DNA from: Deltaproteobacteria bacterium
GTDB taxonomy: Bacteria; Myxococcota_A; UBA796; SXON01
Direction of reading: 5' to 3'
Assembly (NCBI GenBank): GCA_947484175.1
Contig: CANKOI010000001.1
Coordinates: 19,752-83,751 of the forward strand
Length of the DNA: 64,000 bases
Part shown: piece by piece, positions 32,829 through 62,946 of the stretch
Numbering within the stretch: the stretch's first letter is position 1
Layout of the letters: each line of letters starts with the position of its first letter
Notes under the pieces: model-generated
What the model was told of the DNA's origin: nothing
The model's database searches: none
What the model saw: the letters and a program-made list of their open reading frames with translations, nothing else
Made by a program: the position numbers and the translations under genes

Positions 32829-33854
32829 ATGAACACCCCCGTCGTCCAGCGCACCATTCCGTTGCCCCCACCGCCCTGGCCCACCCTCGACCCCTTCCTC
32901 TTCTGCGTGCATCACGACGACACGTACCCCCGTGGCAACGAGAAGCTCGGACCGGCCGCATCTCTGGAGGGCAGGGCGCTCGGCCAAGATTTCGCGGAAA
33001 AGGACGGCTGGCGGATGTACCACGGCCAGCGCGTTCCCGGCTTTCCCAGCCACCCTCATCGCGGATTCGAAACCGTCACGCTCGCGCGGCGGGGGCTCAT
33101 TGATCACTCCGACTCCATGGGTGCCACGGCGCGATTCGGGGGCGGCGACGCGCAGTGGATGACGGCCGGCGGCGGTGTGGTGCACAGCGAGATGTTCCCG
33201 CTCGTGAATTCCGAGACCGGCAACCCCACCGAACTCTTCCAGATCTGGCTGAACCTGCCCTCGCGCAGCAAGCGGGTGAAACCCTATTTTGCGATGCTGT
33301 GGAACGACGAGATCCCCCACGTGGTCGTCGAAACCGGAGGGGCGTTCGCGGAGGCCCGAGTAGTGTCCGGACATCTCGGCGGCGCCCATGCCCCGGCCTG
33401 CCCTCCCGACAGTTGGGCCGCCGATCCTCAGAACGACGTGACGATCGCCACCCTGAAGCTCGAAGCCGGCGCGGCCTTCACGTTGCCCCCCGCGCTCGTT
33501 GGTGTTCAGCGGGTCCTCTACTTCTTCGCGGGCACCCAGCTCCGCATCAATGGCCATGCCGCACCGGCGCGCCATGCTCTCCAGCTCTTGGCCAGCGAAC
33601 CAGCGGAGCTGGTGGCGGCCGACGCCTGTGAGCTGCTGGTGCTCCAGGGGCGCCCCATCGGGGAGCCGGTCTGCCAGCACGGCCCGTTCGTCATGAACAC
33701 CCAGAGCGAGGTGCAGCAGGCGTTCGCCGACTACCGCCGCACCCAATTCGGCGGCTGGCCGTGGCCGTCGCCCGAGCCGGTCCACGCGGCCAGCGAAGGC
33801 CGCTTCGCCAAGCACGCCGACGGGCGGGTGGAGCGCCCGGCTAGCTTGGTTTGA
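32829..33854 (+). CDS. Pirin-family protein
   Basis: Cupin metal motif HPHRGFETVT; overall length and bicupin pattern. Confidence 0.85.
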   Translation: MNTPVVQRTIPLPPPPWPTLDPFLFCVHHDDTYPRGNEKLGPAASLEGRALGQDFAEKDGWRMYHGQRVPGFPSHPHRGFETVTLARRGLIDHSDSMGATARFGGGDAQWMTAGGGVVHSEMFPLVNSETGNPTELFQIWLNLPSRSKRVKPYFAMLWNDEIPHVVVETGGAFAEARVVSGHLGGAHAPACPPDSWAADPQNDVTIATLKLEAGAAFTLPPALVGVQRVLYFFAGTQLRINGHAAPARHALQLLASEPAELVAADACELLVLQGRPIGEPVCQHGPFVMNTQSEVQQAFADYRRTQFGGWPWPSPEPVHAASEGRFAKHADGRVERPASLV

Positions 33855-35778
33855 AGCCCGAGTAGACCACCCACCGCCAACAGTCACGGATCGCCCCCGT
33901 GGGGGAGATTTCAAAGGGGTGGATAGCGCGAACCTCCGCGGGACAGTGGTGGTAGAGGTCCCGGATCTGGTGCCGGTGCAACAGGGGGGTTTCCCAGGTG
34001 GCAATCCAATTGTCGATGTCCTCCCACTGCAAGTATTCTTGCTTGGAGAGGTTCACGAACCCCGCCTGTTCCAGCAGCGCGCGCACATCTTCGTCGTAGA
34101 GGTTGTTCACGAACAGGGGCTGTTTCTTCTTCACCACCTGAAACATCCAGGGTCCGTCTACCGCGCCGAAGGGCACCCACTGCCCCACCACGAACTGGCC
34201 ACCGGGCTTGAGCACGCGGAAGATCTCAGCCAGCGGTCGCTCGGGTTGCGGCAGCAGATGCAGCACCTCGCGGTTGCACACGCCATCGAAGCTCGCCTCC
34301 GGGAAAGGGATGTCGTACACATCCCCTAAGACGACCTCGTCGAGACGCTTTCGCGAGAGGGCCACCATCTCCGGCGTGAGGTCGAGCCCCACGATGCGCC
34401 CCACCTTGCCACGGAAGCTTGCCCCGACCACGCCCGAGCCGCAGCACACGTCGAGGAGCACGGCGTCGTCGGCGAGTTGGCTGGAGCCGCCGTGCATCGC
34501 GAGCAGCCCGGCGTTGGTGATCCAGTCGGCCGAGGTGTGCCAGGTCTTCGACCGGATGCCGAATTGCTGCCGGTAGATTTCTTTGTCGACGAGGTGCTCC
34601 ACACGCTCGTACCGAGCGCGCTCGCTGGCCCGCCGCGAAGCGAGGCGGGCACGCCCGGCTTCGACGGCCCGCCCCACGACCGCTGCGGCGTCCGCCGGGT
34701 TGGCGCGCAGCCACGCCGCGAGGGCGACCCCGACCGCCGACTCCACGGCGCGCCCCGCGGGGGGGTCTAGCAGGCGGGTCTTGGTCTGCCCTTCGAAGTG
34801 GGGGTCGGGCATGCGCACCGACAGCACCGCCACGAGGCCCTCGAGGGTGTCGTTCACCTCCAGCGGCTCGGTGCTGTCCAGCAGCCGGGCCTCACGGGCA
34901 TAGCGGGTGAGCGCCTGCCCCACGGCCGCGCGCAGGCCGTCGGCGTGGGCGCCCCCGAGCGGGGTGTACACGTGGTTCACGAAACCCTGAAAGTTCTCGG
35001 CGAAGGCTCGGGTCCACAACAACGCAGCAGACACCTCGTGAGGACCGACCGTCGCCGCCACCGACACCGGCCGGGCGTGCACCCGCTCTTGCCCTTCCGC
35101 CAGCCACGCCGCGAAGCCCGCGATGCCCTCGTCGGAGGAGAAGGTCACTTCGCCGGCGGGGCTCACCAGCCGACAGGACAATCCCGAGCTGAGCCAGCTC
35201 TGGCAGCGCAGCCAGCGCTCCACCGCACCCACGTCGGCGCGCGCGCGCCCGAACACCGCTGGGTCGGCCCGGAAGCGCACCGTAGTGCCCGAACGCGCGG
35301 CGTCTCCCACGCGCACAAAGGGCTCAACGGCGAGCCCTTGGGCCCAGCGGCCGCGCCAGCGACCGCCCTCGCGGCACACCTCCAACTCGAAGGTGGCGGA
35401 GAGCGCGTTCACGCAGGTGAGGCCCACGCCGTGGAGTCCGCCCGGCAGGCGGTAGGCGCCTTCCTGAAATTTCCCGCCCGCGTGCAGCTCCGTGACGAGC
35501 ACTTCCGGGATGCGCATTCCCGTGGGCGGGTACACCTCCACCGGAATGCCGCGCCCGTTGTCACTCACCGCCCACTCGTCGTCCAACCCGAGCACGACGT
35601 GCACTTCGGTGGCCTGCCCGGCGAGCGCTTCGTCGAGCGCGTTCTGGAGCACCTCGATCACCAGCTGCATCACGCCGTCGGGGCCGGTGGAGCCGACGTA
35701 CATCGCCGGCCTCATCCTCACCGCCGCCAGCCCCTTCAGAACAACGATGCTGTCTGCATCGTAGCGCATCTCACCCAT
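33841..35778 (-). CDS. Fusion protein: GyrB-type GHKL ATPase + transducer (43K fragment) fused to a class I SAM-dependent methyltransferase; no TOPRIM/C-terminal domain
   Basis: N-terminus YDADSIVVLKGLAAVRMRPAMYVG, IEVLQNALDEALAG, SDNGRGIP, LHAGGKF, GGLHGVG, FEGQTKTRL, colinear with E. coli GyrB residues about 5-390. From about residue 440, MTase motif I LLDVCCGSGVVG, LDLTPEMV, VLKPGGQFVV. Confidence 0.8.
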   Translation of the reverse strand: MGEMRYDADSIVVLKGLAAVRMRPAMYVGSTGPDGVMQLVIEVLQNALDEALAGQATEVHVVLGLDDEWAVSDNGRGIPVEVYPPTGMRIPEVLVTELHAGGKFQEGAYRLPGGLHGVGLTCVNALSATFELEVCREGGRWRGRWAQGLAVEPFVRVGDAARSGTTVRFRADPAVFGRARADVGAVERWLRCQSWLSSGLSCRLVSPAGEVTFSSDEGIAGFAAWLAEGQERVHARPVSVAATVGPHEVSAALLWTRAFAENFQGFVNHVYTPLGGAHADGLRAAVGQALTRYAREARLLDSTEPLEVNDTLEGLVAVLSVRMPDPHFEGQTKTRLLDPPAGRAVESAVGVALAAWLRANPADAAAVVGRAVEAGRARLASRRASERARYERVEHLVDKEIYRQQFGIRSKTWHTSADWITNAGLLAMHGGSSQLADDAVLLDVCCGSGVVGASFRGKVGRIVGLDLTPEMVALSRKRLDEVVLGDVYDIPFPEASFDGVCNREVLHLLPQPERPLAEIFRVLKPGGQFVVGQWVPFGAVDGPWMFQVVKKKQPLFVNNLYDEDVRALLEQAGFVNLSKQEYLQWEDIDNWIATWETPLLHRHQIRDLYHHCPAEVRAIHPFEISPTGAIRDCWRWVVYSGFKPS

Positions 35779-36235
35779 CCACCGACTCCGCCCGCAGCGC
35801 CGCGATGCGCGCCGCGTGGAACACCCGCAGGCGGCTCACACTCTCAAACCAGCTCCCGATGTCGGAGAACCCCTCGCGTCGGGCCGTGGTGGCCCTCGCC
35901 CCCTGCGCCTCGGCGTCCCGGTCGTAGAACTTCTCCAAGACGGCGAGGTTTTCGCTGGTCGTGCCCGCCCGTGCCCCGAGCAGCGCCTCTCGCGATCTTA
36001 AGAGCAGATCGAGCGTGGTGCTGGCGTTGAGCGCATGCTGTTCGGCCATCTCCCGAAGCGCCCGAGAGGCTTCGCTGCGCCCCTCGATCTCCGCGATGCG
36101 GGCAAACCAGGCGCATTCGGTGGAGGCCACCGCTTCGTCGCGGAGCGCGGCTTCGAGGTGCTCGCGGGTGAGCGCGTCGTCGAGGCGGGGCGCGGCCGAA
36201 CGGGCCGGCGCCGCCGAGGGGGAAGGATCAGGCAT
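35771..36235 (-). CDS. Ferritin/rubrerythrin-like four-helix-bundle protein (metal ligands partly degenerate)
   Basis: 154 aa. Two-fold pattern TREHLEAAL..EA....FARIAEIEG....EMAEQH and TSENLAVLE..ARREGF....ESVSRLRVFH resembling rubrerythrin halves. 8-nt overlap with the downstream gene. Confidence 0.5.
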   Translation of the reverse strand: MPDPSPSAAPARSAAPRLDDALTREHLEAALRDEAVASTECAWFARIAEIEGRSEASRALREMAEQHALNASTTLDLLLRSREALLGARAGTTSENLAVLEKFYDRDAEAQGARATTARREGFSDIGSWFESVSRLRVFHAARIAALRAESVDG

Positions 36236-36240
36236 GGGGT

Positions 36241-37857
36241 TCAGACCGAGACGCTGAACTCGCGCTCGTTCACGCGGCTGAGGGTCACCCCTTCTCCCGC
36301 GGCATAGAGCCCGCGGTAGGCCAGAGCCCCTGGGTCGATGACGCCGCCGGCGCTCGCGAAGGACGCGCGCCAGTCGGTGGTCGGTTCGGGGTCGTAGTAG
36401 GCGAAGTGCTCGGGGAAGTGCTGGAAGTCCATCACCGGCCCGGGCTGGTAGCTATCGTAGAGCCGCTTGTAGCTGCGCCGCATCTTCTCTTCGGGCAGCC
36501 GGTTGTAGTTGATGAACTCGTCGCGTTCGAGCGCCTGCTCCACGGCCAGCCAACGCAGGTGCTCCACTTCGTCGCGGATGGCGCCACTTTGCAGCGAGTC
36601 CCGGTAGACCGTGGTGCCGGGCATGGCCGACAGGTACTTCACGCGCGTGATGTGGTGGTTGTCTTCCGCCCACTCACACATGTGGTCGAGCGAGCCTTCG
36701 TCCTCCTCGGGCAGGCCGACGATCGTGAGGCCGCCGTAGCGCACGCCTGCGTCCCACGTGTTTTTCATCGCCTTGTAGACCAAGTTCTCCGTGCTCCCCT
36801 TCCGGGCCATCTTGAGCGCCGCCTTGCCCAGAGACTCCACGCCGTAAAGCGCGATGTCGCAGCCCGCCGTGCCCATCGCGGCCGCCACTTCCGCGTCCAC
36901 ATCGGCGTTGCGGGTGAGACAGGTCCAACGCAGGTCCTGATCCCGAATCACGTCGAGGTATTCCAAGGTCTGCGGCTTGTGCGCGGTGAAGGTGAGGTCG
37001 ACGAAGAAGACAAAGTCGATGTCGTACTTCCGCTTGTACTCCGCCAGCTCGGCGTGCAACTTCTGCGGACTCTTCACGCGCTCCTGAGGGGTGGTGCGGT
37101 AGCAGAAGGAGCAGTCCATCTTGCAGCCGCGGCTGTAGCTGGCGATGATCTGCTTTTGGAGCCCGCGTGGGTCGCGCGACTGTGGCCAGAGATCGAGGTT
37201 CATCGCAGGCAACGAATCCAGGTTGGGCATCTGTCCGCGCGGCGCGGTCTGATGCACGGCGCCTTGGGCATCACGGAACCAGATTCCCTTGATCTCGGGC
37301 AGCCGCGCGCCCCACAGCCCGCTGGCGAAGGCCTCCATCACCTCGAGGATGGTGAGCTCACCCTCGGAGATCACGGCCACGTCGGCCGCCGTTTCGCGCA
37401 TGAAGACGTGGGGCACCGACGTGACGAGCGAACCTCCCAACACGATCGGGAGCCGCGGGCGCGATGCCTTCACCTCGCGGATCAGCTGCTCCAAGAAGGG
37501 GTAGCAGTCCTCGTAGGTGGCGAGCCCCAGGATGTCGCAGCCCTCCATGATCTGGCGGTAGGCCGACTCCAACGGCGCGCGGTCGTACCGAACATCGATG
37601 ATCCGCACCGGGTAGCCGGCGTTGTGAAGCACGGTGGCGATGTACGAAATGCCCTCGTACGGGGAGGTGAGAAAGAACTCCCAGCCGCGGGGCATGGTGA
37701 ACGGTGAGGGGCCCACGACGAGCGCGATGCTGGGCAGCTGCCGATTGGTGGAAACGGGACTGGCGGCCTGCTGGGCCATCAGGTCCATCAGCTGCTGATC
37801 GGTGCGACCGTTGGCCACGGCGTACAGGGCGGGGTCGAGCGAAGGGACGTAGGCCAA
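36241..37857 (-). CDS. B12-binding-domain radical SAM protein (class B type)
   Basis: TTG start at 37857 preceded by GAGGAG with a 5-nt spacer. N-terminal Rossmann-like B12 domain (IALVVGP..GISYIATVL..DILGL). CxxxCxxC as RGCKMDCSFCY. No SPASM Cys clusters. Confidence 0.8.
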   Translation of the reverse strand: MAYVPSLDPALYAVANGRTDQQLMDLMAQQAASPVSTNRQLPSIALVVGPSPFTMPRGWEFFLTSPYEGISYIATVLHNAGYPVRIIDVRYDRAPLESAYRQIMEGCDILGLATYEDCYPFLEQLIREVKASRPRLPIVLGGSLVTSVPHVFMRETAADVAVISEGELTILEVMEAFASGLWGARLPEIKGIWFRDAQGAVHQTAPRGQMPNLDSLPAMNLDLWPQSRDPRGLQKQIIASYSRGCKMDCSFCYRTTPQERVKSPQKLHAELAEYKRKYDIDFVFFVDLTFTAHKPQTLEYLDVIRDQDLRWTCLTRNADVDAEVAAAMGTAGCDIALYGVESLGKAALKMARKGSTENLVYKAMKNTWDAGVRYGGLTIVGLPEEDEGSLDHMCEWAEDNHHITRVKYLSAMPGTTVYRDSLQSGAIRDEVEHLRWLAVEQALERDEFINYNRLPEEKMRRSYKRLYDSYQPGPVMDFQHFPEHFAYYDPEPTTDWRASFASAGGVIDPGALAYRGLYAAGEGVTLSRVNEREFSVSV

Positions 37858-37935: not shown

Positions 37936-39357
37936 TCAGAATACAGTGATGTGCTCTTCCGCGACGCCGAGGTAGCGGTTGGGGTCGGTGTTCATCCCGC
38001 CCATCCACGTGCGGATGTCTTGCTCCAGCTCGTAGGCGGTGCGCGGGTCGGTTTCACTGAGGTCGGTGCTCTCCTGCGGGTCGGCGCCGAGGTCGTGCAG
38101 CTGCTTCTGGCCGTCCGCGAGGTCGAGGATCAGCTTCTTGCCATCGCGGGTGCGAGCCCGCAGGTGGACAAAGAGGCGGTAGTCCGATTCGGCGTAGATC
38201 GGCAGGTCGACCTGCTCGCCCCGCAAGAGCGGCAGGAGGCTCTTGCCGTCGATGTCCGGGGGCGGGGCCACCCCGAGCGCGTCGAACAGCGTGGGGAAGG
38301 TGTCCAAGGTGCGCACCGGCGTGTCGACCACCCGCGCTCCTTCGCCGCCCGGAAACCGAATCATCAGCGGCACGTGCAGCTGGTGCTCGCAGATCGTCGC
38401 CCCGTGGTCGAGGTAGCCGTGTTCCATGAACTCCTCGCCGTGGTCGGCCAGCACCACCACGAGGCTCTTGTCCATGAGCCCCAGCTCGCGCACGCGGGCG
38501 AAGAACAGCCCGAGCCGCTCATCGGCCTCGCGCACCTTCTGCTGGTACACCTTCAGCAGGATGGCCGCATCTTCGGGCGAGATGTCCCCCTTGGCGGGAT
38601 CGCCCGGCTTCACAATCGCGGCGAGGCCGGCCTCGCGGAGCTTCGCCTGCTGCTCGATGCTCCCGTCGATCGTGCCCTGGTAGTCGGGGGCGAGCTCCGC
38701 GACCGTCTTGGTCATCGGGTGCTGGCCGTGAACGTCGTAGCCGTGGAAGAACATCAGGAAGTGGTGGTCGGCGTTGGCGCTGAGCCACTCCATGGCGGGG
38801 GGGCCGGAGTAGTCCATCCCCGCGAACACCTTGTCGTCGAGGTAGGTGGTGAAGCCACGGTTGTAGCCGAACTTCCCGGAAATGCCGGCGCCCCCCGTGA
38901 AGGCGACCGCCTCCCAGCCCTGTTTGCTCAGCTCCTCCGGCAACAGCGGGATCGTGTCCTTCAGGCGGTCGAGGACGAGCTCCTTGCCTCCCGCCGGATC
39001 GGGCACGAGCTTGTTGACCACACCGTGGTGGGAGGGCCAACGTGCAGTGAAGATCGCCATGTGGGCGGGCACTGTCCAGGGCGCGGGAGACGTGGCGTTG
39101 GAGAAGGCTACGGCCTCCTTCTGAAAGGCGTCGAGGTTGGGGGTGAAGGTGCCACCGCCGAGACCCGTGTGGTCGAAACGCAGGGCATCCATGCTCACCA
39201 CGATCACGTTCAGCGCCGAGGCGCGCGCGGCGTAGTCGAACGACGGCCCCTTGGGGGCGGACGGCTTGGCCGCAGGCGAGGCCCCCGCGGGAGGCTCCTC
39301 CGCGGCGCAGGCGGCGGCAAACAACAGCGCGGTGAGGGCAAAGGGCAGGACGCGCAT
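37936..39357 (-). CDS. Sulfatase-like (alkaline-phosphatase superfamily) hydrolase/transferase lipoprotein
   Basis: ATG 39357 after GGAG gives MRVLPFALTALLFAAAC. Metal site VVSMDALRFDH. Nucleophile region PWTVPAHMAIFTARWPSHHG (Thr type, no C/S-x-P-x-R). Later LADHGEEF. Confidence 0.75.
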   Translation of the reverse strand: MRVLPFALTALLFAAACAAEEPPAGASPAAKPSAPKGPSFDYAARASALNVIVVSMDALRFDHTGLGGGTFTPNLDAFQKEAVAFSNATSPAPWTVPAHMAIFTARWPSHHGVVNKLVPDPAGGKELVLDRLKDTIPLLPEELSKQGWEAVAFTGGAGISGKFGYNRGFTTYLDDKVFAGMDYSGPPAMEWLSANADHHFLMFFHGYDVHGQHPMTKTVAELAPDYQGTIDGSIEQQAKLREAGLAAIVKPGDPAKGDISPEDAAILLKVYQQKVREADERLGLFFARVRELGLMDKSLVVVLADHGEEFMEHGYLDHGATICEHQLHVPLMIRFPGGEGARVVDTPVRTLDTFPTLFDALGVAPPPDIDGKSLLPLLRGEQVDLPIYAESDYRLFVHLRARTRDGKKLILDLADGQKQLHDLGADPQESTDLSETDPRTAYELEQDIRTWMGGMNTDPNRYLGVAEEHITVF

Positions 39358-39424: not shown

Positions 39425-41833
39425 CTACTTGCCTTCGAAGTCGCCGTCGGCATCCCCAGGAGGCTCGGCGCCACCAGGCCCCGACGCCCGTCCCATCGAC
39501 CAAAGGGTGGCAAATCCGAGGGGGATGAGGATGAAGCCCCCGAGGGTCACCGCCACCTCGCCGAGCAACACCAGGAGCCCCAGCGAACGGATGCCCTGCG
39601 AGGAGCCCAACGACAGCGCCGCGAAGGCCACGACGGTCGTGGAGGTTCCCAAGGCACTCGCCCACCCCGTCGTGGACAACGACTTGATCACGCCTCCCGG
39701 TCCTTCCTCCTCGAACCGGTGGATCAAGTGGATCATCACATCGATGCCGATGCCCAGCACAATGGGCACACCGACGAAGTTCACCATCGAGATCTTGATG
39801 CCCGTCATCACCAGCAGCGCCACCCACCACGCCACGCCCGCCAACAGCACAGACATCGCGCCCGCCACGGCCCACACCCGCCTTAGGTCGAGCGAGGTGA
39901 AGAACAAGACGAGGCAGAAGGCCACCGCGGCGATGATGGGGGCGTCCCGGTGCATGAGGCGGAAGAGCACGCCGAGGGTCACGTACTCGCTGGCGATCAC
40001 GGTATCGGGGAACTCACGCTCCATCACTTCGGTGAGGTGGTAGGCCTCCCGCATGTCCCACATGTTGCCGGACGGCACCATCAACATCCGGTGGCGGCCA
40101 CCGAGCGCGCCGAGGGCGTGCTGAACGCCGCGGGGCAGTTCGCTGGCGCTCATCACATGCGGGTCGGCCGCCGACACGCGCTTCAAGTTCTCGCGCACGG
40201 CGGCGGGGAGAAACGCCGTGTTGGGGTCAGCCGACAGTTGCGCGAGGTCTCGCAGCACCTCCACTCGCTCCGCCTGATCTTCCGGCAGAATGGACCGGAT
40301 CGACAACACTTGGGTGATCTCGGGAAGCTTACCGGCTTGCACCTTTTTGCTCACCCGCGCGACCGCTGCGTTGAGCTCCCCTTCGGAGGCGTAGCTGATC
40401 ACCAAGGGGGCGTAGCTCTCGCGGGCGAGCGCCTGTTGACGAGGGGTGAGGTCGGCGTAGGCGAGCCCCTGCCGCCGGAGCTCCGAAAGATCGAACTCAA
40501 ACTCCACGTTCCTCACGAAGAGGCCCGCCACGATCGTAAAACCGGCGAGGAGCGTGAGCGTCATTGGCGCGAGGTGGTACACCGCGGGCAGCTTTCGTCC
40601 GCGAAGTCCAGAGCGGGCCGTGCGGCTCAACGGCCCCCGACGGTCGAGCCACACCACGAGGAGGGGCATCAACAGCATCTCGGCAATGAGCGTGAGCACC
40701 AGCCCCAAGGACAAGAGCCAACCGAGCTGCCGGAACCCGGCAAAGTGCGCGAACAAGAGCGCCGCGAACCCCGCCGAACTGGTGAGCGCGGCGCTGGTGC
40801 ACGCGCCGCCTACGAGGTCCCATGCCCGGACCACAGCGTCCTCGATCGAGTCGCCCGCCTCCACACACTCTCGGATTCGAGCGTAGAGGTGCACCCCGAA
40901 CTCCACGCCGAGCCCGATGAGCACGGCATTCACGAAGCTGGTGAAGGTGTTCAGCCCACCCACCGTGGCCCCGGCGATGCCGAGCGTCCACAGATTGCTC
41001 AGCGCCAGCGGGATGAAGATCACGGCGAGCGCGCGCGGCGTGCGGAACGCGAGCGTAATGATGAAGAGGACGAGGACCAGGCTGGCCGCGGTCGTGGTGA
41101 AGATGTCCTCGACGATGGCTTCGTAATCCTCGACGTTGTGCCGGTAGGCGCCGCCCTTCCACACCACGCTCACGGTCGGATGGTGCGCTTCGACCACCGC
41201 GAGGTGTTCATCCACGCGCTTCATGAACTGAGCGGCGAAGGGCAGGTCGTGAGCGGAGCCACGCGGCCGCACGATCATGCGGGCCACGCCGGACTCCGAG
41301 ACCAACTTCAGGTCGTCGTCCCCCTGCTGGAGCTTCTCGGTAAGGGAACCGAGATCGAGCACGCTCGCCGCGATCAGGGGGTTCGCGAGCGCGGACCCGA
41401 GCGTGGTGGCGCTCTGCACCCGGTCCCGGATGGTGGTGAGCTCCTCGACGGAGAGCGAGAGCAGGCCGAGCTTGAACGCAGTGTCGGGGTCGATCCGGTA
41501 GAGGACGTAGTCCACATCGGGGTCGGCTTCGAGGAGGCCTTGAAGCTCCCCCATGAACGCGTCGCGAGCCACCGGGTCTTCCGCCTCGGCGGCGATGGTG
41601 AGCACGTTTACCCCGCCCTCCTCGGCGTCGAGGCTCGCCAAGGCCTTCGTGGAAGGCTCCTCGCTCGGCATCAGGTGCAGGATGTCGCTGTCCACCCGCA
41701 CCCGGGACGCGAACCCAGCGGCCACCGCGGAGACGGCCGCAAGGAGCAGCAGCAGCAGCAGCTTGTGGTCGAGAACCCAACGGGCCAGACGGCCGTAGAA
41801 GCCCCGCGGAGTGTAGGACATGGTCGCGCGCAT
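39425..41833 (-). CDS. RND-superfamily MMPL-type exporter (two 6-TM bundles, two periplasmic loops)
   Basis: In-frame ATG 41833 or 41821 (MRATMSYTPRGFYGRLARWVLDHKLLLLLLLAAV). Duplicated TM bundles with the SSD-like pattern. The upstream 119 codons of the track ORF are non-coding-like. Confidence 0.75.
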   Translation of the reverse strand: MRATMSYTPRGFYGRLARWVLDHKLLLLLLLAAVSAVAAGFASRVRVDSDILHLMPSEEPSTKALASLDAEEGGVNVLTIAAEAEDPVARDAFMGELQGLLEADPDVDYVLYRIDPDTAFKLGLLSLSVEELTTIRDRVQSATTLGSALANPLIAASVLDLGSLTEKLQQGDDDLKLVSESGVARMIVRPRGSAHDLPFAAQFMKRVDEHLAVVEAHHPTVSVVWKGGAYRHNVEDYEAIVEDIFTTTAASLVLVLFIITLAFRTPRALAVIFIPLALSNLWTLGIAGATVGGLNTFTSFVNAVLIGLGVEFGVHLYARIRECVEAGDSIEDAVVRAWDLVGGACTSAALTSSAGFAALLFAHFAGFRQLGWLLSLGLVLTLIAEMLLMPLLVVWLDRRGPLSRTARSGLRGRKLPAVYHLAPMTLTLLAGFTIVAGLFVRNVEFEFDLSELRRQGLAYADLTPRQQALARESYAPLVISYASEGELNAAVARVSKKVQAGKLPEITQVLSIRSILPEDQAERVEVLRDLAQLSADPNTAFLPAAVRENLKRVSAADPHVMSASELPRGVQHALGALGGRHRMLMVPSGNMWDMREAYHLTEVMEREFPDTVIASEYVTLGVLFRLMHRDAPIIAAVAFCLVLFFTSLDLRRVWAVAGAMSVLLAGVAWWVALLVMTGIKISMVNFVGVPIVLGIGIDVMIHLIHRFEEEGPGGVIKSLSTTGWASALGTSTTVVAFAALSLGSSQGIRSLGLLVLLGEVAVTLGGFILIPLGFATLWSMGRASGPGGAEPPGDADGDFEGK

Positions 41834-41875
41834 AGCGCGCCCGCCCGAGAAGCGCCGCGAGCCCCCCGCGATGCC

Positions 41876-41904
41876 TTGCAGACCCCCGCCTCCCGTCGTA
41901 TCGT
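41876..41904 (+). promoter_or_regulatory. Candidate promoter TTGCAG-17-TATCGT only 10 nt upstream of the sigma-factor ATG
   Basis: TTGCAG 41876-41881, TATCGT 41899-41904, ATG 41915. No Shine-Dalgarno sequence in between. Confidence 0.3.
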
Positions 41905-41914
41905 GCGGGCGTTC

Positions 41915-42622
41915 ATGTCCTTCACCCCCGCCCAGCGCGACGCCCTGATTCTCGACCACGTCGCGCTGGTCCGGATCATCGCGGGCCGCCTCGCGCGGCG
42001 CCTCCCGAGCAGCGTGGATGTCGACGAGCTCGTGAGCGTGGGCACCGTGGGACTGATCGACGCGATCGACCGCTTTGATCCCGAGCGCGGCGTGCCCTTC
42101 AAGGGTTTCGCCGACCTGCGTATTCGCGGCGCGATGGTGGACTACCTGCGCGGGATCGACCCGGTTTCTCGTGCGGTCCGGCGGAAGCACAACGCCCTCG
42201 AAGCGAAACGAACGGAGCTGAGGAACCGCCTCGGGCGCGCACCCACCCGCGAAGAGATGGCCCGCGGCCTCGAGCTCCAGCCTCAGGCCTACGACGACAT
42301 GGTCGACGCCGCCCTGCTCTTCAGCGTGGTGAGCAGCGACACCCCGCTAGACGAAGACGCCGGCACGACGATCGGGGACCAGCTCTCGGGGCAGGAGACG
42401 AACGTCGAGGACGCCTGGGTGGCTCGAGAACTCACGGCCGAGATGCTGGCCGCCCTCGAAAACCTCCCGGAGCGCGAGCGTATCGTCGTGACCAAATTCT
42501 ATCTGGAGAGTCGCACGCTCAAGGAGATCGGGTCCGAGTTGGCGGTGACCGAGTCCCGCGCTTGTCAGATCGCGAAGGCGGGCACCGCTCGGATGCGAGT
42601 ACGCCTACTCCCCGGGCAGTAA
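41915..42622 (+). CDS. FliA/WhiG-family (sigma-28 type) RNA polymerase sigma factor
   Basis: Only the last 235 codons of track ORF 39950..42622 are coding. LVRIIAGRLARRLPSSVDVDELVSVGTVGLIDAIDRFDPERGVPFKGFADLRIRGAMVDYLR. Region 4.2 LKEIGSELAVTESRACQI. Confidence 0.85.
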   Translation: MSFTPAQRDALILDHVALVRIIAGRLARRLPSSVDVDELVSVGTVGLIDAIDRFDPERGVPFKGFADLRIRGAMVDYLRGIDPVSRAVRRKHNALEAKRTELRNRLGRAPTREEMARGLELQPQAYDDMVDAALLFSVVSSDTPLDEDAGTTIGDQLSGQETNVEDAWVARELTAEMLAALENLPERERIVVTKFYLESRTLKEIGSELAVTESRACQIAKAGTARMRVRLLPGQ

Positions 42623-42643
42623 GGGGGGGCGCCCTCCGATCGA

Positions 42644-44191
42644 TCACGGTTCGTCGGTTTCGTCCAGCGCACTGCTCTCCTTGGGTCGGCTCCCAAACAG
42701 GCGCACCTGCACGCCCACCGACAGGCCTACCCCGAGAGCGGTGGGGCCAGGAAGCGTCTCGATGCCCTCGAGGGCCGACACGGGGCTGTACCGCTCCTCC
42801 TGCGTTTCGCCGTCGTCGAGCAGAAACGACACCGGCACCTGCGCGTAGAAGTCGAGGATGTCGTTGACCCGAACCTCCGCGCCGCCGATCAACTCCACGC
42901 TCCACGTGGCCTGCGCCGGGAAGCGGGCCAGTTCGTCGGGCGGCAGGATGTGGTCGGCGATGCCCGTTCCCTGCATCCAGTAGGCCCCGAACCCAAACGT
43001 GGGGTGGATCGCGGACGCCGGCAGAAAGGACACCGTGGCGCGTGGCCCCACGATCAGGCTGGACTGCTGAGTGGTCACCGACTCGGGCACTCGGCCATCA
43101 TCCAGATCATCCGTGCTCTCCTGGCTGATGAGGTAGACGAAGTTGCCGCCGGCAAGTCCTACCCGCACGGAGACGTCCACCATCGGATGAACGCCGAAGC
43201 CCAGTTCCAGGGAACCCGTGCCACTTGACCCGCTCGCTACGCTCTGGGCGGAGTAGGCATCGACGGTTTGCAGACCCTGCACGGCGTAGCGTCCGTAGTA
43301 CTCGGCGTCGACAGGGCCGTTGACGTAGCCGCCCGAGGCACGAATCAACAACTGGAAGCGCCGCCCTTCCGCTCGTTCACGCCAGGTGGGCAGGTCGAGA
43401 CCCGAGTTTCGGTACCGAAGGTAGTCGCCGGCCTGCATCCCCAGTCGCTCCCACGGCTTGGACCCTTCTTCCACCGACTTCTCCGCGATGTCGGCTTCCG
43501 TGAGCTTCGGTCGTTCGATCTGCACGTCGGCCCGGCGAATGCTGGTGGTGAACTCACCCAGCTCCTCCTCCAGCGCGGCCAGTTCCGCGGCGATCACGGC
43601 ATCCTGCTCCTCGTCGGCCGCTTCCGCGTCCTCCGTCTTCACCCGGATGTCCCTCTCCGCGCCCACCTCGCCGGCAATGGCCGCCACGAGGACACGGGCC
43701 ACGCCCTCCGCGAACGCCTCATCCCGCCCGGAGTCGAGCTCGCTGCGGAAGCTCACGGCCACCCGCGCCCCGTTGATGTCGACGATGTCGATGTCCACCC
43801 GCGTGCCCTTCAGCAGCGACTGCACCGACCCCGTGACCGCCCACGAAGCCGACGCGCGGCCCCCCACCACGAACGTGCAGCCCACAATGTCGCCCGGCGG
43901 ACAGCTGTCCATGTAAATGCGGGCCGAGTAGTCTTCGAACGCGGGGCTGTCCTCCACCCGCAAGACCCGCAGTTCGGGCCGCCCCCGCAGCTTCTCCGCC
44001 ACAAAGGCCTCGATCAGGGCCGCGAGCGAGCGCGACTCGTCGTTGCGTGCCTGAAAGGCGGAAACGAAAACGGGCGTGGGCGAAGCCGCCACCGCCCAAG
44101 AGGACCAGATCGAGAGGAGGAGGGGCAGCACGGCGGCACCATAGCAGAAACCTCGGCGGCCCGGCGTGGCGCGCTCAGGGGAGGGGGGCAA
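42644..44191 (-). CDS. Secreted hypothetical protein; C-terminal half possibly beta-barrel
   Basis: TTG start. Signal GAAVLPLLLSIWSSWAVAA. Central acidic coiled-coil-like stretch. C-terminal alternating hydrophobic pattern ending VQVRLF plus a tail. Confidence 0.5.
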   Translation of the reverse strand: MPPSPERATPGRRGFCYGAAVLPLLLSIWSSWAVAASPTPVFVSAFQARNDESRSLAALIEAFVAEKLRGRPELRVLRVEDSPAFEDYSARIYMDSCPPGDIVGCTFVVGGRASASWAVTGSVQSLLKGTRVDIDIVDINGARVAVSFRSELDSGRDEAFAEGVARVLVAAIAGEVGAERDIRVKTEDAEAADEEQDAVIAAELAALEEELGEFTTSIRRADVQIERPKLTEADIAEKSVEEGSKPWERLGMQAGDYLRYRNSGLDLPTWRERAEGRRFQLLIRASGGYVNGPVDAEYYGRYAVQGLQTVDAYSAQSVASGSSGTGSLELGFGVHPMVDVSVRVGLAGGNFVYLISQESTDDLDDGRVPESVTTQQSSLIVGPRATVSFLPASAIHPTFGFGAYWMQGTGIADHILPPDELARFPAQATWSVELIGGAEVRVNDILDFYAQVPVSFLLDDGETQEERYSPVSALEGIETLPGPTALGVGLSVGVQVRLFGSRPKESSALDETDEP

Positions 44192-44927
44192 GGGGCCTTC
44201 GCCGACGCGCGTCGGCCAAGCCGTCGGCGATGGCCGGCAATCGCGACAGTGGGCCGCCCTCCCGCAGGACTTGCGCGAGATGCAGGCCGGCGACCACGGC
44301 CGTTCGCCAGCCCGGCGGAAACAGCAGCGCCTGCCCGGCTACGGCGCAGCGCGTGGCCATGACGCTCCGCCGGTGCACGGTGCCGCCCCCTTCGTGCCAG
44401 CAGCGCGCACCCGCTACGAGCCAGGCGCCGCCCAGGCGAAGGCACAGCTCCACGTCCTCCCCGCCGTGGGGAAACCGCTCGTCGAAGCGCGCGCTGGCCG
44501 GCACGTGAAGGCAGGCGCCGCTCAGAGCAGCCACGGACCGGTCGGCAAGGGGCGAGTCGCGGCGCTGGACCACGCGGCCCCACCCGCGCACCACGATCCC
44601 CGCAGACTCCACGCCTGCTGGGCCGGTGAGCACCGGCCCGCACAGCCCCCCCCGCGCTGCGAGACGGTCGAGGCAATCGCCCATGGGGAGGGCATCGTCG
44701 TTGAGCAGGATCGCGGCCGGCGTACGCACGGCGGCGAGCCCCGCGTTCGCGGCGCGCGCAAAACCCTGCCCGCCGCCGAGCCGCACGCGGGGGACATCAA
44801 GGTCCAAGCCGGCGTCGGTGTCGTCGACCACCAAGACCCGGCGGCCCTCGAGGGCGTGGAGCAGCCGAAGGAGCGCGGCCGTGGCGCTTCGGTGCGGCAC
44901 CACCACGGTGATGCCGTCCGCGTTCAT
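44175..44927 (-). CDS. Family 2 glycosyltransferase
   Basis: ITVVVPHRS.., VLVVDDTD, ILLNDDALP (DxD). The ATG overlaps the upstream stop (ATGA). Confidence 0.75.
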   Translation of the reverse strand: MNADGITVVVPHRSATAALLRLLHALEGRRVLVVDDTDAGLDLDVPRVRLGGGQGFARAANAGLAAVRTPAAILLNDDALPMGDCLDRLAARGGLCGPVLTGPAGVESAGIVVRGWGRVVQRRDSPLADRSVAALSGACLHVPASARFDERFPHGGEDVELCLRLGGAWLVAGARCWHEGGGTVHRRSVMATRCAVAGQALLFPPGWRTAVVAGLHLAQVLREGGPLSRLPAIADGLADARRRRPLAPLP

Positions 44928-46858
44928 TCGTTCGCCGGTTCCTTGTTGGCCGCACGGCCGATCACATCCGCGAGCTGGCGTACGGTGTACGGTTTTTGAA
45001 GAAACCCGCTCAGGCCCTCCGACATGCCACGCCGACGGGCGTCGACCTGTGAAAAGCCCGAACTGAGCACGATCCCCGCAGTGGGCTCGCGCCGCAGGAG
45101 GGCGCGCAGCACCTCTTCGCCCGACATCACGGGCATGGTCATATCGAGCAGGACGACGCGCACCTCGGCCCGGTGCCGGTCGAACCGAAGGAGGCCGGCC
45201 CTGCCGTCTTCCGCCTCGATGACGTCGTAGCCGAGCGCCTCGAGCATGGCGCGCGCGGTCGCCCGCACCTCGCTCTCGTCGTCGATGACCAGCACCAGCC
45301 CCGATCCCGTACGAATCCGCGACAACAACGGTACCGGTGCCGGCACGCGCGCCAAGGAGGCCGGCAGGTACACCCGAACGGTCGTGCCAGCCTCCAGACT
45401 GCTCTGGACCTGCACGACGCCGCCGTGCCCCTTCACGATCCCGTGAACGACGGCGAGGCCCAACCCCCGCCCGTGCGCCTTCGTGGTGAAGAAGGGGTCG
45501 AAGATGCGACGGCGCGTGCTGTCGTCCATGCCCGAACCGTTGTCGGCCACCGTGAGGACCGCGTAGGGGCCGGGGGGAAGGCGCAGCTCGCCCGCCGCGA
45601 CGGAGTCGATCTGGTTGAATCCCGTGCGGATGGTGATCACGCCGCGGCGGTCTCCCAGCGCTTCGGCGGCGTTCGTGGCGAGGTTCATCAACACTTGCTG
45701 CAGCTGCGTCCGGTCGCCCTCGACGGCGGGCGTGAGGGGGTCCACCTCGAACTGAAACTCGGCGAGCTTGGGCACCACCGTGGCAAGCAGGCCACGAAGC
45801 TCACGAAACGCGACGCCCAACTCCAGTGTTTCGGTGGTGAGCTGCGCCCTGCCCGAATAGGCGAGGAGCTGACGGGTGAGGTCGGCCGCGCGCTGGGCGT
45901 TGGCGATGAGGTCGTCGATGGAACCGCGGGCGGGGCTGCGCTCCGGCAGGCGCATCGCCGCGAGCGAGGCGTTGCCGAGGATCACCGTGAGCAGGTTGTT
46001 GAAGTCGTGCGCGATCCCGCCCGCCATCACTCCGAGGCTCTCCACTTTCTGCAACTCCACGATCTCGGCGTGGATCCGTTCCCGGTCACGCTCCGCCTCC
46101 ACGCGGGCCGTGATGTCGAGCATCACTCCTCGCTGTGCCACGACGTTGCCGCCCTTGTCGTACACCACCCGAACGGCATCGCGCATCCACACCACCCGCC
46201 CATCCTCGGCGCGGACCCGGTACTCAAGGTCGCGGTTGCCGCGGGCCGAGCCGGACTCGGCCACGACGCGGACCCGGTCGTCTTCGTGGAGAATCTTGCG
46301 CCAGAACCGCGGCTCCGCCCATCGCTCCAGCGGATACCCCAAAAGAACCGCTGCGCCGTCGCTCACGTAGCTCCAGCCGCTCTGGCCCTCGGGCGCCTCC
46401 CATACAATCGCGTTGATGCTCTGGATGAGCTGCGCCTGCCGCTCCTCCGCCGCCGAGGCCGCTTCGTTCAAGAACGTCTGCTCGCGCCGCCCCCGCGCGC
46501 TCGCCTCCGCGGCCTGCCGCACTTCAACAGATCGGGACACCAGCCCCGCCGCCACCCGCAGCACCCGCAGGCCGGCGCGCCCGACGGGCACCGGGGAACG
46601 AAGCACCAGGCCCAATGCTCCGTCCAGGCGCTCCTCAAAGCAGCCTGCCGGCGCCGGCTCCACGGCCTCCGACGCGAGCCCGACCCACACCCCCTCGAGC
46701 CCCTCTTCAGCGAGGACCCGCCGAACCAAATGGAGGGCCGCCTGTTCGTCGACCAGCCCTTCCGCGCCCTCAAGCAGCCGATCGAGTACGTTCTCCCACC
46801 GGGCTCCTGAAGGCTCGACCGACGCTTGCGTCATGGGAGGATACTTAAGACCGCTCAT
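44924..46858 (-). CDS. Hybrid sensor histidine kinase / response regulator (PAS-HisKA-HATPase-REC)
   Basis: H-box IAHDFNNLL, N-box NLATNAAEA, G-boxes DNGSGMD and GRGLGLAVVHGIV. Receiver VLVIDDE..VLLDMTMP. Start 46858 or 46834. Confidence 0.85.
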   Translation of the reverse strand: MSGLKYPPMTQASVEPSGARWENVLDRLLEGAEGLVDEQAALHLVRRVLAEEGLEGVWVGLASEAVEPAPAGCFEERLDGALGLVLRSPVPVGRAGLRVLRVAAGLVSRSVEVRQAAEASARGRREQTFLNEAASAAEERQAQLIQSINAIVWEAPEGQSGWSYVSDGAAVLLGYPLERWAEPRFWRKILHEDDRVRVVAESGSARGNRDLEYRVRAEDGRVVWMRDAVRVVYDKGGNVVAQRGVMLDITARVEAERDRERIHAEIVELQKVESLGVMAGGIAHDFNNLLTVILGNASLAAMRLPERSPARGSIDDLIANAQRAADLTRQLLAYSGRAQLTTETLELGVAFRELRGLLATVVPKLAEFQFEVDPLTPAVEGDRTQLQQVLMNLATNAAEALGDRRGVITIRTGFNQIDSVAAGELRLPPGPYAVLTVADNGSGMDDSTRRRIFDPFFTTKAHGRGLGLAVVHGIVKGHGGVVQVQSSLEAGTTVRVYLPASLARVPAPVPLLSRIRTGSGLVLVIDDESEVRATARAMLEALGYDVIEAEDGRAGLLRFDRHRAEVRVVLLDMTMPVMSGEEVLRALLRREPTAGIVLSSGFSQVDARRRGMSEGLSGFLQKPYTVRQLADVIGRAANKEPANE

Positions 46859-53791: not shown

Positions 53792-55069
53792 TTACTTGCC
53801 GATGCAGAAGCGTGCGAACAGGCGATCGAGCACCGCCTCCCGCACGGTGGAACCGCTGAGTTCCGCCAGAGCCTCCAACGCGGCGTAGCCCAGCTCCACC
53901 GCTACGGCCGCCCCCGCGTGCGGCAGCACGTTGGCCGCCTCTTGGAGGGAACGCCCCACCCGAGCCAACAGCTCCGCCTGCCGCGCGCTGGTCAGCACCA
54001 CCTCCGCGCTACCCGGCGCCTCGCCGCGAAGCGCGACGAGGATGGCCCCGCGCACGGCGTCCATCCCTTCCCCCGTGAGCGCAGACACGGCCAAGACTCC
54101 GGAAGGAGGCGCGCCCACATCGCACATCGTGCCCACCCGCAGCTCCCCTTCTCGTTCCGCAGGCGTCCTCGCGCCCGGCGGGATGCAGCGCACCACGAGG
54201 TCGGCGCCGCGGGACTCCACACGCGCCTGTTCGATGCCTTCGGCCTCGATCGCGTCGGTAGCCTCACGCTCCCCTGCGGTATCGACCAGGGTGAGCCTCG
54301 CGGCCTCAAGCTGCAGCGGGGACTCCACTGCGTCACGGGTGGTGCCGGCCTGCGGGGAGACGATCGCGCGCTGTCGCCCGAGCAGCGCATTGAACAGACT
54401 CGACTTTCCCGCGTTCACCGGCCCCGCGAGCACCACGCGGGCGCCTTCGACCGCCACCCGCCCGGCGCGCCATGAGTCGGCCAGGCGAGCCGCCTGAACG
54501 GCCAAACGGTGCAGCCTCTCTGCCAGCGCACCATCGCTGCCTACGAGCAGGTCCTCGCCCGGGTAGTCGAGCACCGCTTCGAGCTCCGCGCACACGTCGA
54601 TCAGCTCGGCGCGAAGCGACTCCACGGCCTCGTGGAGTCGACCGTCGAGACCCCCACGGGCGAGCTCGATCCCCACGCCCGAGCGCGCCTCGATGGTGGC
54701 GAGCACGGCCTCCGCGCGTAGGAGGTCCATGCGGCCGGCGAGAAAGGCCCGACGGGTGAACTCGCCGGGGCGCGCGAGGCGAGCGCCCAGCGCGCGCAGC
54801 AGCCGCTCCACCAAGAGGGGGTTGCCGTGCCCGGCCAGCTCGACCACGTCCTCGCCGGTGTAGCTGCGCGGCCCCGGGAACACGGTCACCACGCCCTCGT
54901 CGAACACGCCCGCCTCGTCACGGAAGCGGCGCAGGCCGGCCCGTCGGGGGGCTGGCAATTCGCCGACCACCTGAGCCGCAAGCTCCTGCGCCTCTGGACC
55001 CGACAGGCGCACGACGGCAATCGCCGCGTGCCCCCACGCCGTGGCGCAGGCCGCGATCGTGTCGTTCAC
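53792..55069 (-). CDS. mnmE: tRNA modification GTPase MnmE
   Basis: GTG start after GAGGA. DTIAACAT, G1 GPVNAGKS, G2 GTTRD, G3 DTAG, C-terminal FCIGK. Confidence 0.9.
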   Translation of the reverse strand: MNDTIAACATAWGHAAIAVVRLSGPEAQELAAQVVGELPAPRRAGLRRFRDEAGVFDEGVVTVFPGPRSYTGEDVVELAGHGNPLLVERLLRALGARLARPGEFTRRAFLAGRMDLLRAEAVLATIEARSGVGIELARGGLDGRLHEAVESLRAELIDVCAELEAVLDYPGEDLLVGSDGALAERLHRLAVQAARLADSWRAGRVAVEGARVVLAGPVNAGKSSLFNALLGRQRAIVSPQAGTTRDAVESPLQLEAARLTLVDTAGEREATDAIEAEGIEQARVESRGADLVVRCIPPGARTPAEREGELRVGTMCDVGAPPSGVLAVSALTGEGMDAVRGAILVALRGEAPGSAEVVLTSARQAELLARVGRSLQEAANVLPHAGAAVAVELGYAALEALAELSGSTVREAVLDRLFARFCIGK

Positions 55070-57589: not shown

Positions 57590-57819
57590 GAAAGCTCCCG
57601 CGGCGGGGGAAGCGGCACGGGGTCGAACCCGCCCGCGTGAAGCGGGTGACACCGGCAGATGCGCTTCGCGCCCAACCACCCACCCTGCAGGGGGCCCCAC
57701 GCGCGGATCGCCTCGGCCGTGTACCGACTGCAGCTCGGATAGAACCGACACATCGGGGGCATGAACCGTGAAACGAGCCGTTGCCAGCCGCGAATTAGGG
57801 TGAGGAGGAACCAGGTCAT
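57586..57819 (-). CDS. yidD: Membrane protein insertion efficiency factor YidD
   Basis: 77 aa. [24 protein letters not shown] motif. Confidence 0.9.
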
Positions 57820-58172
57820 CGGGAAGATCGGGTGAGGAGCGAATCAAGTTCGGCGGTGAGCGGCGCGAAACCGGCCAGAGCGGCCGCGGGGAGAGCGATA
57901 AGCACGAGATCACGGTTCGGCGGCATTCGATCCGCCAAGGCGCGCAGAGCTTCGCGGAGCCAACGTTTCACGCGGTTCCGAACCACGGCGTTTCCCACCT
58001 TGCGGCTGACGGCGAGCCCCGCCCGCGAGCGCCCCGCTTCACGAAGGGCAACGACCAGCGTGAGGAAACGACCGCGTTGACGGCGCCCCGTGCGCTGCGC
58101 GTGGGAGAAGTCCGCCGAACGACAAAGGCGCTCGGGTGGCTCAGTCGCGCTTGGAGGCAATCGTGACGACAA
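57816..58172 (-). CDS. rnpA: RNase P protein component
   Basis: [15 protein letters not shown].., [20 protein letters not shown] (RNR motif). TTG start lying inside rpmH; exact start uncertain. Confidence 0.8.
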
Positions 58173-58299: not shown

Positions 58300-58569
58300 A
58301 CAGGGACTCCGGCGCGCGGCCGCTAACCCGTCTCACAGAGCCGGCAACGCCAAGAGCCCGATCGGAGTGATTCTGCCCGACCCGAAAGAAGTCGATCGCA
58401 ATCCTGCACTTTTGTAAAACCGTGGGGGCACCGGTCGTAGATCGGCACGCGGCCTCAGATCGCGATCCGAATGTGGTGAAAGCCCCTTGAAACCGATCCG
58501 ATTCCTGAGGTAGACCCCCCGGTGGGGGAGGCTGCCCCCGCACGACGACGGCACGGCTTGGGGGGCGGG

Positions 58570-62896: not shown

Positions 62897-62946
62897 GGGA
62901 GCGGATAACGCACCCGCGAATCCTCACGGCGGGGTACCTGAGGCGG

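Follow-up and report, generated by a model that had tools for sequence, protein, structure and literature searches.

A gyrase-type ATPase fused to a methyltransferase, a NucP/AcmP-family protein in a reduced deltaproteobacterial operon

The fusion protein and its family

The window analysed here, i.e., the whole 64-kb stretch of a deltaproteobacterial contig (CANKOI010000001.1), carries on its minus strand an open reading frame (ORF) of 645 amino acids (aa) in which the ATPase-transducer (43K) module of the gyrase subunit GyrB is followed in one chain by a class I S-adenosylmethionine (SAM)-dependent methyltransferase, and which we assign to the NucP/AcmP family of nucleoside-sulfamate clusters. 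The layout had been proposed in an earlier, sequence-only reading of the locus, and a domain-architecture search agrees with it, returning HATPase_c, DNA_gyraseB and Methyltransf_11/25 in the absence of Toprim. The protein is divided as follows:

33841..35778, minus strand: NucP/AcmP-family protein, 645 aa, GyrB 43K ATPase-transducer and class I SAM methyltransferase (ORF and translation from ATG, Pfam, NCBIfam)
34609..35778, minus strand: residues 1-390, GHKL ATP-binding and transducer domains (GyrB 43K module), up to and including the long C-terminal transducer helix (PDB, Foldseek, conservation)
34585..34623, minus strand: residues ~386-398, flexible linker at the point where TOPRIM begins in GyrB (model confidence, column conservation)
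33841..34584, minus strand: residues 399-645, complete YcgJ/NucL-type class I methyltransferase (Methyltransf_11/25, YcgJ and NucL alignments)

Pfam places HATPase_c at residues 33-170, the transducer domain DNA_gyraseB at 218-386 and Methyltransf_11/25 at 442-531, and the motifs quoted in the sequence-only reading are all present: YDADSI (6-11), IEVLQNALDE (41-50), SDNGRGIP (72-79), GGLHGVG (113-119) and EGQTKTRL (329-336) on the ATPase side, RARLASRRASERA (376-388) in the junction helix, and LLDVCCGSGVVG (441-452), LDLTPEMV (465-472) and VLKPGGQFVV (522-531) in the methyltransferase. The closest solved structures are GyrB 43K fragments (6enh/1kij, E 2.5e-88, residues 4-386). The NCBIfam gyrB/parE models cover residues 4-390 only, corresponding to model positions 8-399 of 641, in agreement with the proposal that colinearity with GyrB extends as far as the helix before TOPRIM. 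Their scores of 343-361 bits are about half of the cut-offs of 740-882, and Pfam finds neither Toprim nor DNA_gyraseB_C in the fusion protein, whereas both are returned by the same search for a true GyrB (P0129); as had been suspected, the protein is not a topoisomerase subunit. Translation may begin at residue 4, the second ATG (nt 35769), which lies one base past the stop of the upstream gene.

The methyltransferase is composed of an N-terminal lid (Y402, QFG.RS..WH.S..W), a Rossmann core (LDVCCGSG) and a C-terminal half (KKKQP ... WRW). Residues ~440-643 align end to end with Bacillus subtilis YcgJ (1xxl, 239 aa; chain residues 24-236), and the stand-alone paralogue NucL shows 30% identity to this part over 247 aa. 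Both alignments run to the final residues, which rules out a separate C-terminal domain; while the sequence-only reading was right in seeing a complete class I methyltransferase in place of TOPRIM, its C-terminal extension of ~100 aa is the ordinary C-terminal half of a YcgJ/NucL-type enzyme. The matching Pfam families are Methyltransf_11/25/31/23/12 and the UbiE type only, with no nucleic-acid methyltransferase family, and the sole DNA-methylase signal is a sub-threshold PADLOC match to MTase_II (E 0.0033). Judged by these profiles, the methyltransferase is of the YcgJ/UbiE/BioC-like small-molecule group. An anti-phage defence system was also considered and rejected; PADLOC gave a generic match of the methyltransferase region to mad2 (E 1.6e-14, residues 415-572) and none for the partner proteins.

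An AlphaFold model of the fusion protein, built with 29 homologues, has a mean predicted local distance difference test (pLDDT) score of 87 and a predicted template modelling (pTM) score of 0.56. Residues 1-385 of the model match AMPPNP-bound 43K structures at 1.7-1.9 Å with a template modelling score of 0.94 (Foldseek), and pLDDT drops below 50 solely at residues 386-396, i.e., at the junction of the two modules.

The architecture is widespread. The best 120 matches among 5.8 billion proteins have the same domain set, with 48-90% identity and 89-100% coverage, and the best 120 matches of a second search, seeded with a Streptomyces member, have it as well. It occurs as a continuous ORF in more than 220 protein clusters and in 86 loci, which rules out a frameshift or an assembly join of two genes, the artefact that the sequence-only reading had itself raised; the fusion is real. 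In a scan with one genome per species, a relative is encoded in 289 genomes, among them Myxococcota, Gemmatimonadota and Acidobacteriota-labelled metagenome-assembled genomes (MAGs), and no plasmid record in PLSDB carries a NucP-type fusion. Several high-GC MAG contigs with the gene cassette described below (L010, L020, L029, L030 and others) are titled Bifidobacterium breve, Klebsiella pneumoniae, Enterobacterales or Rickettsiales, labels that are implausible for their gene content and composition and are not trustworthy.

By equivalence with GyrB, Glu42 is catalytic, Asn46 is a Mg ligand, residues 114-119 form the glycine-rich ATP lid, Gln331 and Lys333, the counterparts of Q335 and K337, belong to the QTK loop, and Tyr6 and Ile11 to the N-terminal arm. 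Computed over 225 family proteins, E42, N46, D73, G77, K103, G114-G119, Q331, K333, Y6 and I11 are invariant or nearly so, and the residues for ATP binding, hydrolysis and N-arm dimerisation, expected from the single sequence to be kept, are thus kept across the family. On the methyltransferase side, D443, C445, C446, G447, G449, D466, K552, Q553 and P554 are identical in 225/225 homologues, and the family shows no variation in the SAM motif or at about 30 other residues. The linker has the lowest column conservation, 0.50. This pattern indicates that the ATP and SAM sites are intact and under strong purifying selection. Only four GyrB-universal positions are changed in the family, i.e., D45, K110, V122C and F282L; of these, V122C and F282L are the only near-fixed differences, D45 being replaced by Q in 55% of members and K110 being variable.

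In a neighbour-joining phylogeny with 40 diverse GyrBs from a 50%-identity representative library, which stand in for the GyrB of the same genome, the family N-domains are monophyletic (bootstrap 94/100) and form a clade separate from GyrB; mean identity is 50% within the family and 41% to GyrB. The same library holds ~4 full-length family representatives at ~600 bits, TOPRIM-bearing true GyrBs reaching 282 bits at most. On this sequence evidence, the NucP/AcmP family is a single ancient GyrB offshoot in which the TOPRIM/GyrA-binding half has been replaced by a NucL-like SAM methyltransferase.

The operon and its counterparts in sulfamate clusters

Three genes precede the fusion gene on the same strand:

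35771..36235, minus strand: NucQ-like pseudo-rubrerythrin, 154 aa (34% identity to Streptomyces virens NucQ; rubrerythrin homology)
36241..37857, minus strand: NucJ-like cobalamin-binding radical SAM enzyme, 538 aa (Pfam B12-binding and Radical_SAM; identity to NucJ)
37936..39357, minus strand: alkaline phosphatase (AlkP)/sulfatase-superfamily lipoprotein, predicted to be exported (Pfam Sulfatase/Phosphodiest)

At the junction, the fusion gene starts within or directly beside the stop of the NucQ-like gene, and the arrangement indicates that the fusion gene is co-transcribed and translationally coupled with the NucQ homologue, in one operon with the NucJ homologue. No riboswitch, promoter or terminator signals were found around the operon.

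The NucQ-like protein is homologous to rubrerythrin 4di0 and sulerythrin (E 1.4e-10), and one copy of the family matches sulerythrin and Burkholderia pseudomallei rubrerythrin with E 1e-39. Even in the copy nearest to true rubrerythrin diiron ligands are lost (E53G, H56N and E126K), and the family consensus lacks both ExxH motifs. This is in agreement with the name pseudo-rubrerythrin given to NucQ (PMC10946740), and rules out an active diiron rubrerythrin as partner. The copy in the window is unusually divergent, with A57S, G73T, P84A and A127G at positions conserved at 87-96% and AHGHLD changed to ASTTLD, while the adjoining NucP- and NucJ-like proteins are well conserved.

The NucJ-like protein is 59% identical to S. 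virens NucJ over 541 aa (tblastn, 36253-37842). The AlkP-like ORF as listed extends to 39513; its probable start is the ATG at 39357, yielding MRVLPFALTALLFAAAC. Its product has 25-27% identity to NucI/NucG, and in this protein as in NucG/NucI (locus L085) the formylglycine motif C/S-x-P-x-R is replaced by AP-x-T-x-x-x-H, with T-x-x-x-H in all aligned members. A lipobox or membrane anchor accompanies the AlkP-like partner in non-actinobacterial loci and is absent in NucG/NucI. The cassette 'sulfatases' may be transferases or phosphodiesterase-like enzymes rather than sulfatases, and a classical sulfatase matured by the radical SAM enzyme was discarded, as there is no C/S-x-P-x-R motif and the radical SAM enzyme is of the B12 type and not of the type of anaerobic sulfatase-maturating enzymes.

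Neighbouring genes were surveyed by unbiased ORF clustering in 84 loci. The pseudo-rubrerythrin gene lies directly upstream of the fusion gene in 79/84 loci (phmmer), and other recurrent neighbours are the B12 radical SAM enzyme, a stand-alone paralogous methyltransferase, a sulfotransferase, sulfatase-family proteins, a weakly sulfotransferase-like protein of 450-470 aa and a protein of the DDAH/arginine-deiminase fold. Gene presence was counted in the 48 loci flanked by 8 kb or more on each side, with a limit of 10 kb from the fusion gene for NucJ; the numbers are 43/48 for NucJ, 39/48 for NucL, 34/48 for NucI-like proteins, 33/48 for NucO, 32/48 for NucK and 30/48 for NucN. Nucleoside-specific genes are rare in comparison (APRT 5/48, PNP 2/48), from which it follows that the cassette moves largely independently of adenosine chemistry.

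The link with known biosynthesis comes from S. virens, the NucP of which (P0292) is 48% identical to the fusion protein and colinear with it (residues 6-644 vs 17-660, E = 0). Genes at the P0292 locus encode, in order, DUF6027, a sulfatase, an arginine-deiminase-like protein, a second sulfatase, a regulator, a B12 radical SAM enzyme, a sulfotransferase, a methyltransferase, a rubrerythrin, the GyrB-methyltransferase fusion, a sulfotransferase-like protein, APRT and PNP, which is the published nuc order. The ascamycin cluster table lists the counterparts AcmP (658 aa, 'DNA topoisomerase II'), which adjoins the 155-aa rubrerythrin AcmQ, together with AcmJ (557 aa, Fe-S oxidoreductase), AcmK (356 aa, sulfotransferase), AcmL (250 aa, methyltransferase), AcmN (319 aa, amidinotransferase) and AcmO (444 aa, hypothetical) (PMC4257720). 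Knock-outs in S. calvus show that deletion of any of nucI, G, J, K, L, N, O, Q or P abolishes sulfamylation of nucleocidin but not fluorination (Wojnowska et al. 2023, PMC10946740); these nine genes constitute the 'sulfamylation sub-cluster', each being needed for the 5'-O-sulfamoyl (O-SO2-NH2) group, and nucP, nucQ, nucL and nucJ have no paralogues in the producers (PMC10946740).

Since the conserved set of neighbouring enzymes is that of the nucleoside-sulfamate clusters, the fusion protein is identified as NucP/AcmP, and we lean towards the ORF being a member of this family that also serves the sulfamate pathway. The fusion as such is thus already known. It was tabulated as AcmP in 2014 (PMC4257720) and named NucP, with a knock-out, in 2023 (PMC10946740), its characterisation being genetic and not biochemical. 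With the architecture reported and tied genetically to sulfamate biosynthesis, the statement of the sequence-only reading that no protein of this kind had been characterised does not hold. For a reduced core operon in a non-actinomycete lineage, no report was found in the literature searched.

Within the clade of the window, the closest syntenic relatives (L006 and L013, 79-80% identical, with the same pirin neighbour) have the genes in one block in the order K-O-N-AlkP-J-Q-P, and four others (L007, L009, L010 and L014, 75-76% identical) resemble the window in having only AlkP-J-Q-P within their flanks. NucL is found in no member of the clade. In a 900-aa metagenomic protein (P0025), a NucP-type part (residues 10-657) is fused to a NucL-type part (661-900) with 65% identity to S. 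virens NucL. This lone example, which a lost stop codon could explain, hints at joint action of the two methyltransferases.

Further observations concern other carriers of the cassette. In 12 non-actinobacterial loci (L003:6559-7479, L081:16680-17549 and 10 more) a protein of 270-306 aa with a Cys-rich, ferredoxin-like C-terminal motif (C-x2-C-x3-C...CP) is encoded beside it. This protein has no match in Pfam or NCBIfam, and may be an electron-transfer partner of the radical SAM enzyme. NucP-type genes are present in Streptomyces anulatus (L083), S. griseus (P0324) and S. clavuligerus (P0325); in S. anulatus an adenylation-thiolation didomain, a second B12 radical SAM enzyme, DUF6027 and an MbtH-like protein flank the full sulfamylation cassette, while APRT and PNP are absent. 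These streptomycetes suggest sulfamate products beyond nucleocidin and ascamycin.

Directly upstream of the operon on the same strand (39425-46858) are genes for an MMPL/RND-type transporter (921 aa), a 515-aa protein without family, a 250-aa, weakly GT2-like protein and a hybrid histidine kinase with PAS and receiver domains, none of which is a conserved cassette neighbour in other loci. A lipid or hopanoid pathway, considered on account of an HpnJ-like score and the MMPL neighbour, is unsupported, the MMPL gene not being a conserved neighbour. The locus is chromosomal and lies ~22 kb from dnaA-dnaN-recF, and the cumulative GC skew is lowest at about 54-56 kb of the window. Genes of the origin region, with the dnaA group facing the mnmE group, are:

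53792-55069, minus strand: mnmE
55081-55974, minus strand: jag/R3H
55949-57913, minus strand: yidC
58522-59883, plus strand: dnaA
60161-61276, plus strand: dnaN
61286-62359, plus strand: recF

The gene after recF (62887-64000) is not gyrB, which takes this place in many bacteria; it encodes a secreted-looking protein with no assigned family and runs off the end of the window.

Possible roles of the gyrase-type ATPase

Nucleocidin and ascamycin contain no methyl group in their structures. Two SAM methyltransferases are nevertheless essential, so that the methylation has to be cryptic. A detailed mechanism can be put forward tentatively, in which the fusion protein would be a dimeric methyltransferase, gated by ATP, in the centre of a complex that assembles the sulfamoyl group. 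The GyrB part would act as an ATP-operated clamp, ATP binding closing the N-terminal gate and dimerising the protein, and hydrolysis re-opening it. This reading is suggested by the retention of the GyrB dimerisation arm and of the QTK loop, with the linker as the sole weakly conserved part, and the match of the predicted model to the closed AMPPNP form is consistent with a live clamp. Closure would unite the two methyltransferase modules, each carried at the end of a transducer helix, and NucL where present, while the dead-site rubrerythrin NucQ could serve as structural partner or scaffold. The methyltransferase would carry out a cryptic methylation needed for sulfamoyl assembly, on a sulfur-containing intermediate, a carrier or a partner cofactor such as the cobalamin of NucJ. 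For the operon in the window, the remaining pathway genes would reside elsewhere in the genome, or the AlkP-J-Q-P module would serve related chemistry.

Several points weigh against this interpretation. NucK, NucL, NucN and NucO were not found anywhere in the 64-kb window by tblastn with the S. virens proteins, and sulfamate production by the source organism is therefore unproven; having these genes nearby is a trait of the pathway and not of the NucP protein family. The literature searched contains no biochemical assay of any family member, the authors of the knock-out study call the enzyme roles unknown (PMC10946740), and no paper after 2023 was found in it that assigns a biochemical role to NucP or AcmP. 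The clamp is carried over from GyrB by analogy, the dimerisation and the NucP-NucQ complex are postulated, the placement of the ATPase relative to the methyltransferase is not confidently predicted (pTM 0.56, disordered linker), and the ATPase could be chemically catalytic instead.

Among the alternatives, the one that survives best, unlikely as we consider it, is that the operon in the window is autonomous or re-purposed for chemistry other than sulfamate formation, e.g., B12/SAM-dependent tailoring of an exported or envelope compound. The absence of NucK, L, N and O from the 64 kb would be explained in this way, as would the four relatives that likewise show AlkP-J-Q-P only, the AlkP-like protein that is predicted to be exported here and is cytoplasmic in Streptomyces, and the MMPL transporter gene directly upstream. 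However, K-O-N lies directly upstream of AlkP-J-Q-P in L006 and L013, so that the ancestral state of the clade is the sulfamylation set; moreover, the absent genes may sit elsewhere in the genome, and NucJ and NucP are conserved to the same degree here as in full clusters.

A role of the GHKL domain as chemical catalyst is less probable again. Here, ATP would activate a sulfur oxyanion, for instance by turning a sulfate ester or free sulfamate, through phosphorylation, into an anhydride (phospho-sulfate or 'sulfamoyl phosphate'), whereupon nitrogen would displace phosphate at sulfur or the sulfamoyl group would be transferred, with the fused methyltransferase acting on the same intermediate. 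Formation of an S-N bond from sulfate derived from 3'-phosphoadenosine-5'-phosphosulfate (PAPS) needs a leaving group, and activation energy beyond PAPS is unexplained; Glu42 and the γ-phosphate contacts Q331 and K333 are 100% conserved, and it is well established that GHKL folds perform phosphotransfer in histidine and BCK/PDK kinases. Retention of the GyrB-specific N-terminal arm (Y6, I11), on the other hand, is sensible only for dimer-dependent hydrolysis, there is no family-specific change near the catalytic water, V122C and F282L being the only near-fixed differences, and the closed GyrB site (1EI1) has little room for an acceptor.

Two proposals of the sequence-only reading fare worse. 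The first, a decoy, would here serve self-resistance, the protein mimicking the GyrB ATPase so as to bind, and perhaps methylate, an inhibitor of the gyrase ATPase that the cluster produces. Duplication of a housekeeping-type domain within a biosynthetic cluster is a well-known mark of resistance, the GyrB residues in contact with aminocoumarins (D73, R76, R136 and T165) are conserved in the family, and in Streptomyces the cassette lies amid typical secondary-metabolite genes. Nevertheless, such a role is very improbable: deletion of nucP is not lethal but removes a biosynthetic step, sulfamylation, a phenotype shared with the eight other enzymes (PMC10946740), and nucleoside sulfamates, the known products of the cassette, are described in PMC7613620 as adenosine monophosphate mimics that hijack aminoacyl-tRNA synthetases and not gyrase. 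Furthermore, the catalytic Glu, the QTK lysine and the dimerisation arm would be superfluous in a decoy yet are kept across the family, and in the predicted model the methyltransferase is at the transducer end, far from the ATP pocket. The suggested link with a metabolite thus stands in the broad sense of a secondary-metabolite pathway, while the aminocoumarin-like, gyrase-decoy role does not.

According to the other, an ATP-gated clamp would capture DNA or another polymer in the GyrB cavity and methylate it, as might be imagined from the gyrase 43K fragment, which captures the T-segment duplex, and from the DNA-gate position that the methyltransferases would occupy by GyrB architecture, but the methyltransferase appears to be of the small-molecule group with no DNA-methylase signal other than the sub-threshold MTase_II match, and both the conserved neighbours and the knock-out phenotype (PMC10946740) are metabolic, leaving hardly any weight for this proposal.

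Returning to the sulfamate reading, how the S-N bond of sulfamate antibiotics is made is unsolved, nine or more genes being needed with no assigned chemistry, and drug research is currently interested in nucleoside sulfamates, which inhibit aminoacyl-tRNA synthetases by 'reaction hijacking'. The NucP/NucQ/NucJ core is strongly conserved well beyond Streptomyces, can occur without sulfotransferases and mostly travels without adenosine-specific genes, which provides a comparative handle on the minimal machine and a pointer to new producers. We regard the finding as of moderate interest, the role of a gyrase ATPase in small-molecule biosynthesis being still unexplained biochemically. More speculatively, the AlkP-like protein with NucJ, NucQ and NucP might be the core, complete in itself, of a sulfamoyl-making machine that is widespread and mobile and extends far beyond actinomycetes, with a recycled gyrase ATPase as the source of energy or gating when the S-N bond is formed. 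If this were true, it would be the first type IIA topoisomerase ATPase domain in small-molecule biosynthesis, and a large number of sulfamate-type natural products, built on acceptors other than adenosine, would await discovery.

Comparison with known systems

NucP, both from S. calvus and from S. virens, and AcmP from Streptomyces sp. JCM9888 have the same two-module architecture as the fusion protein, with 658-661 aa compared with 645 here, and share with it the upstream pseudo-rubrerythrin, the linked B12 radical SAM enzyme and the invariant ATP- and SAM-site residues. They differ in their hosts, which are actinomycetes, whereas the window belongs to a high-GC, myxobacterium-like genome. 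Unlike the nuc and acm clusters, the operon in the window is devoid of NucK, NucL, NucN, NucO, APRT and PNP, and its phosphatase-family partner, only ~26% identical to NucG/NucI, is a predicted exported lipoprotein.

With the GyrB 43K fragments from Escherichia coli (1EI1), Thermus thermophilus (1KIJ) and Mycobacterium tuberculosis (3ZKB), the fusion protein has the GHKL and transducer fold in common, at 39-44% identity. All universal residues of the ATP site, QTK loop and N-terminal arm are kept, while K110 and D45 are not conserved; in contrast to GyrB, the fusion protein has no TOPRIM, GyrA-binding tail or DNA-cleavage part, and falls in a separate clade. A truncated GyrB from Myxococcus xanthus (3CWV, from structural genomics) is also GyrB-derived without TOPRIM and comes from the same broad bacterial group; it is, however, a distant match (E 2.8e-13) without methyltransferase, and belongs to a different family.

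The class I fold of the methyltransferase is common to YcgJ (1XXL), including the C-terminal half, and to NucL/AcmL, which is often encoded beside the fusion gene. Compared with YcgJ, the fused copy is tethered to an ATPase, and it is set apart from both YcgJ and NucL by an invariant signature of its own, i.e., CC in motif I, KKKQP and WRW.

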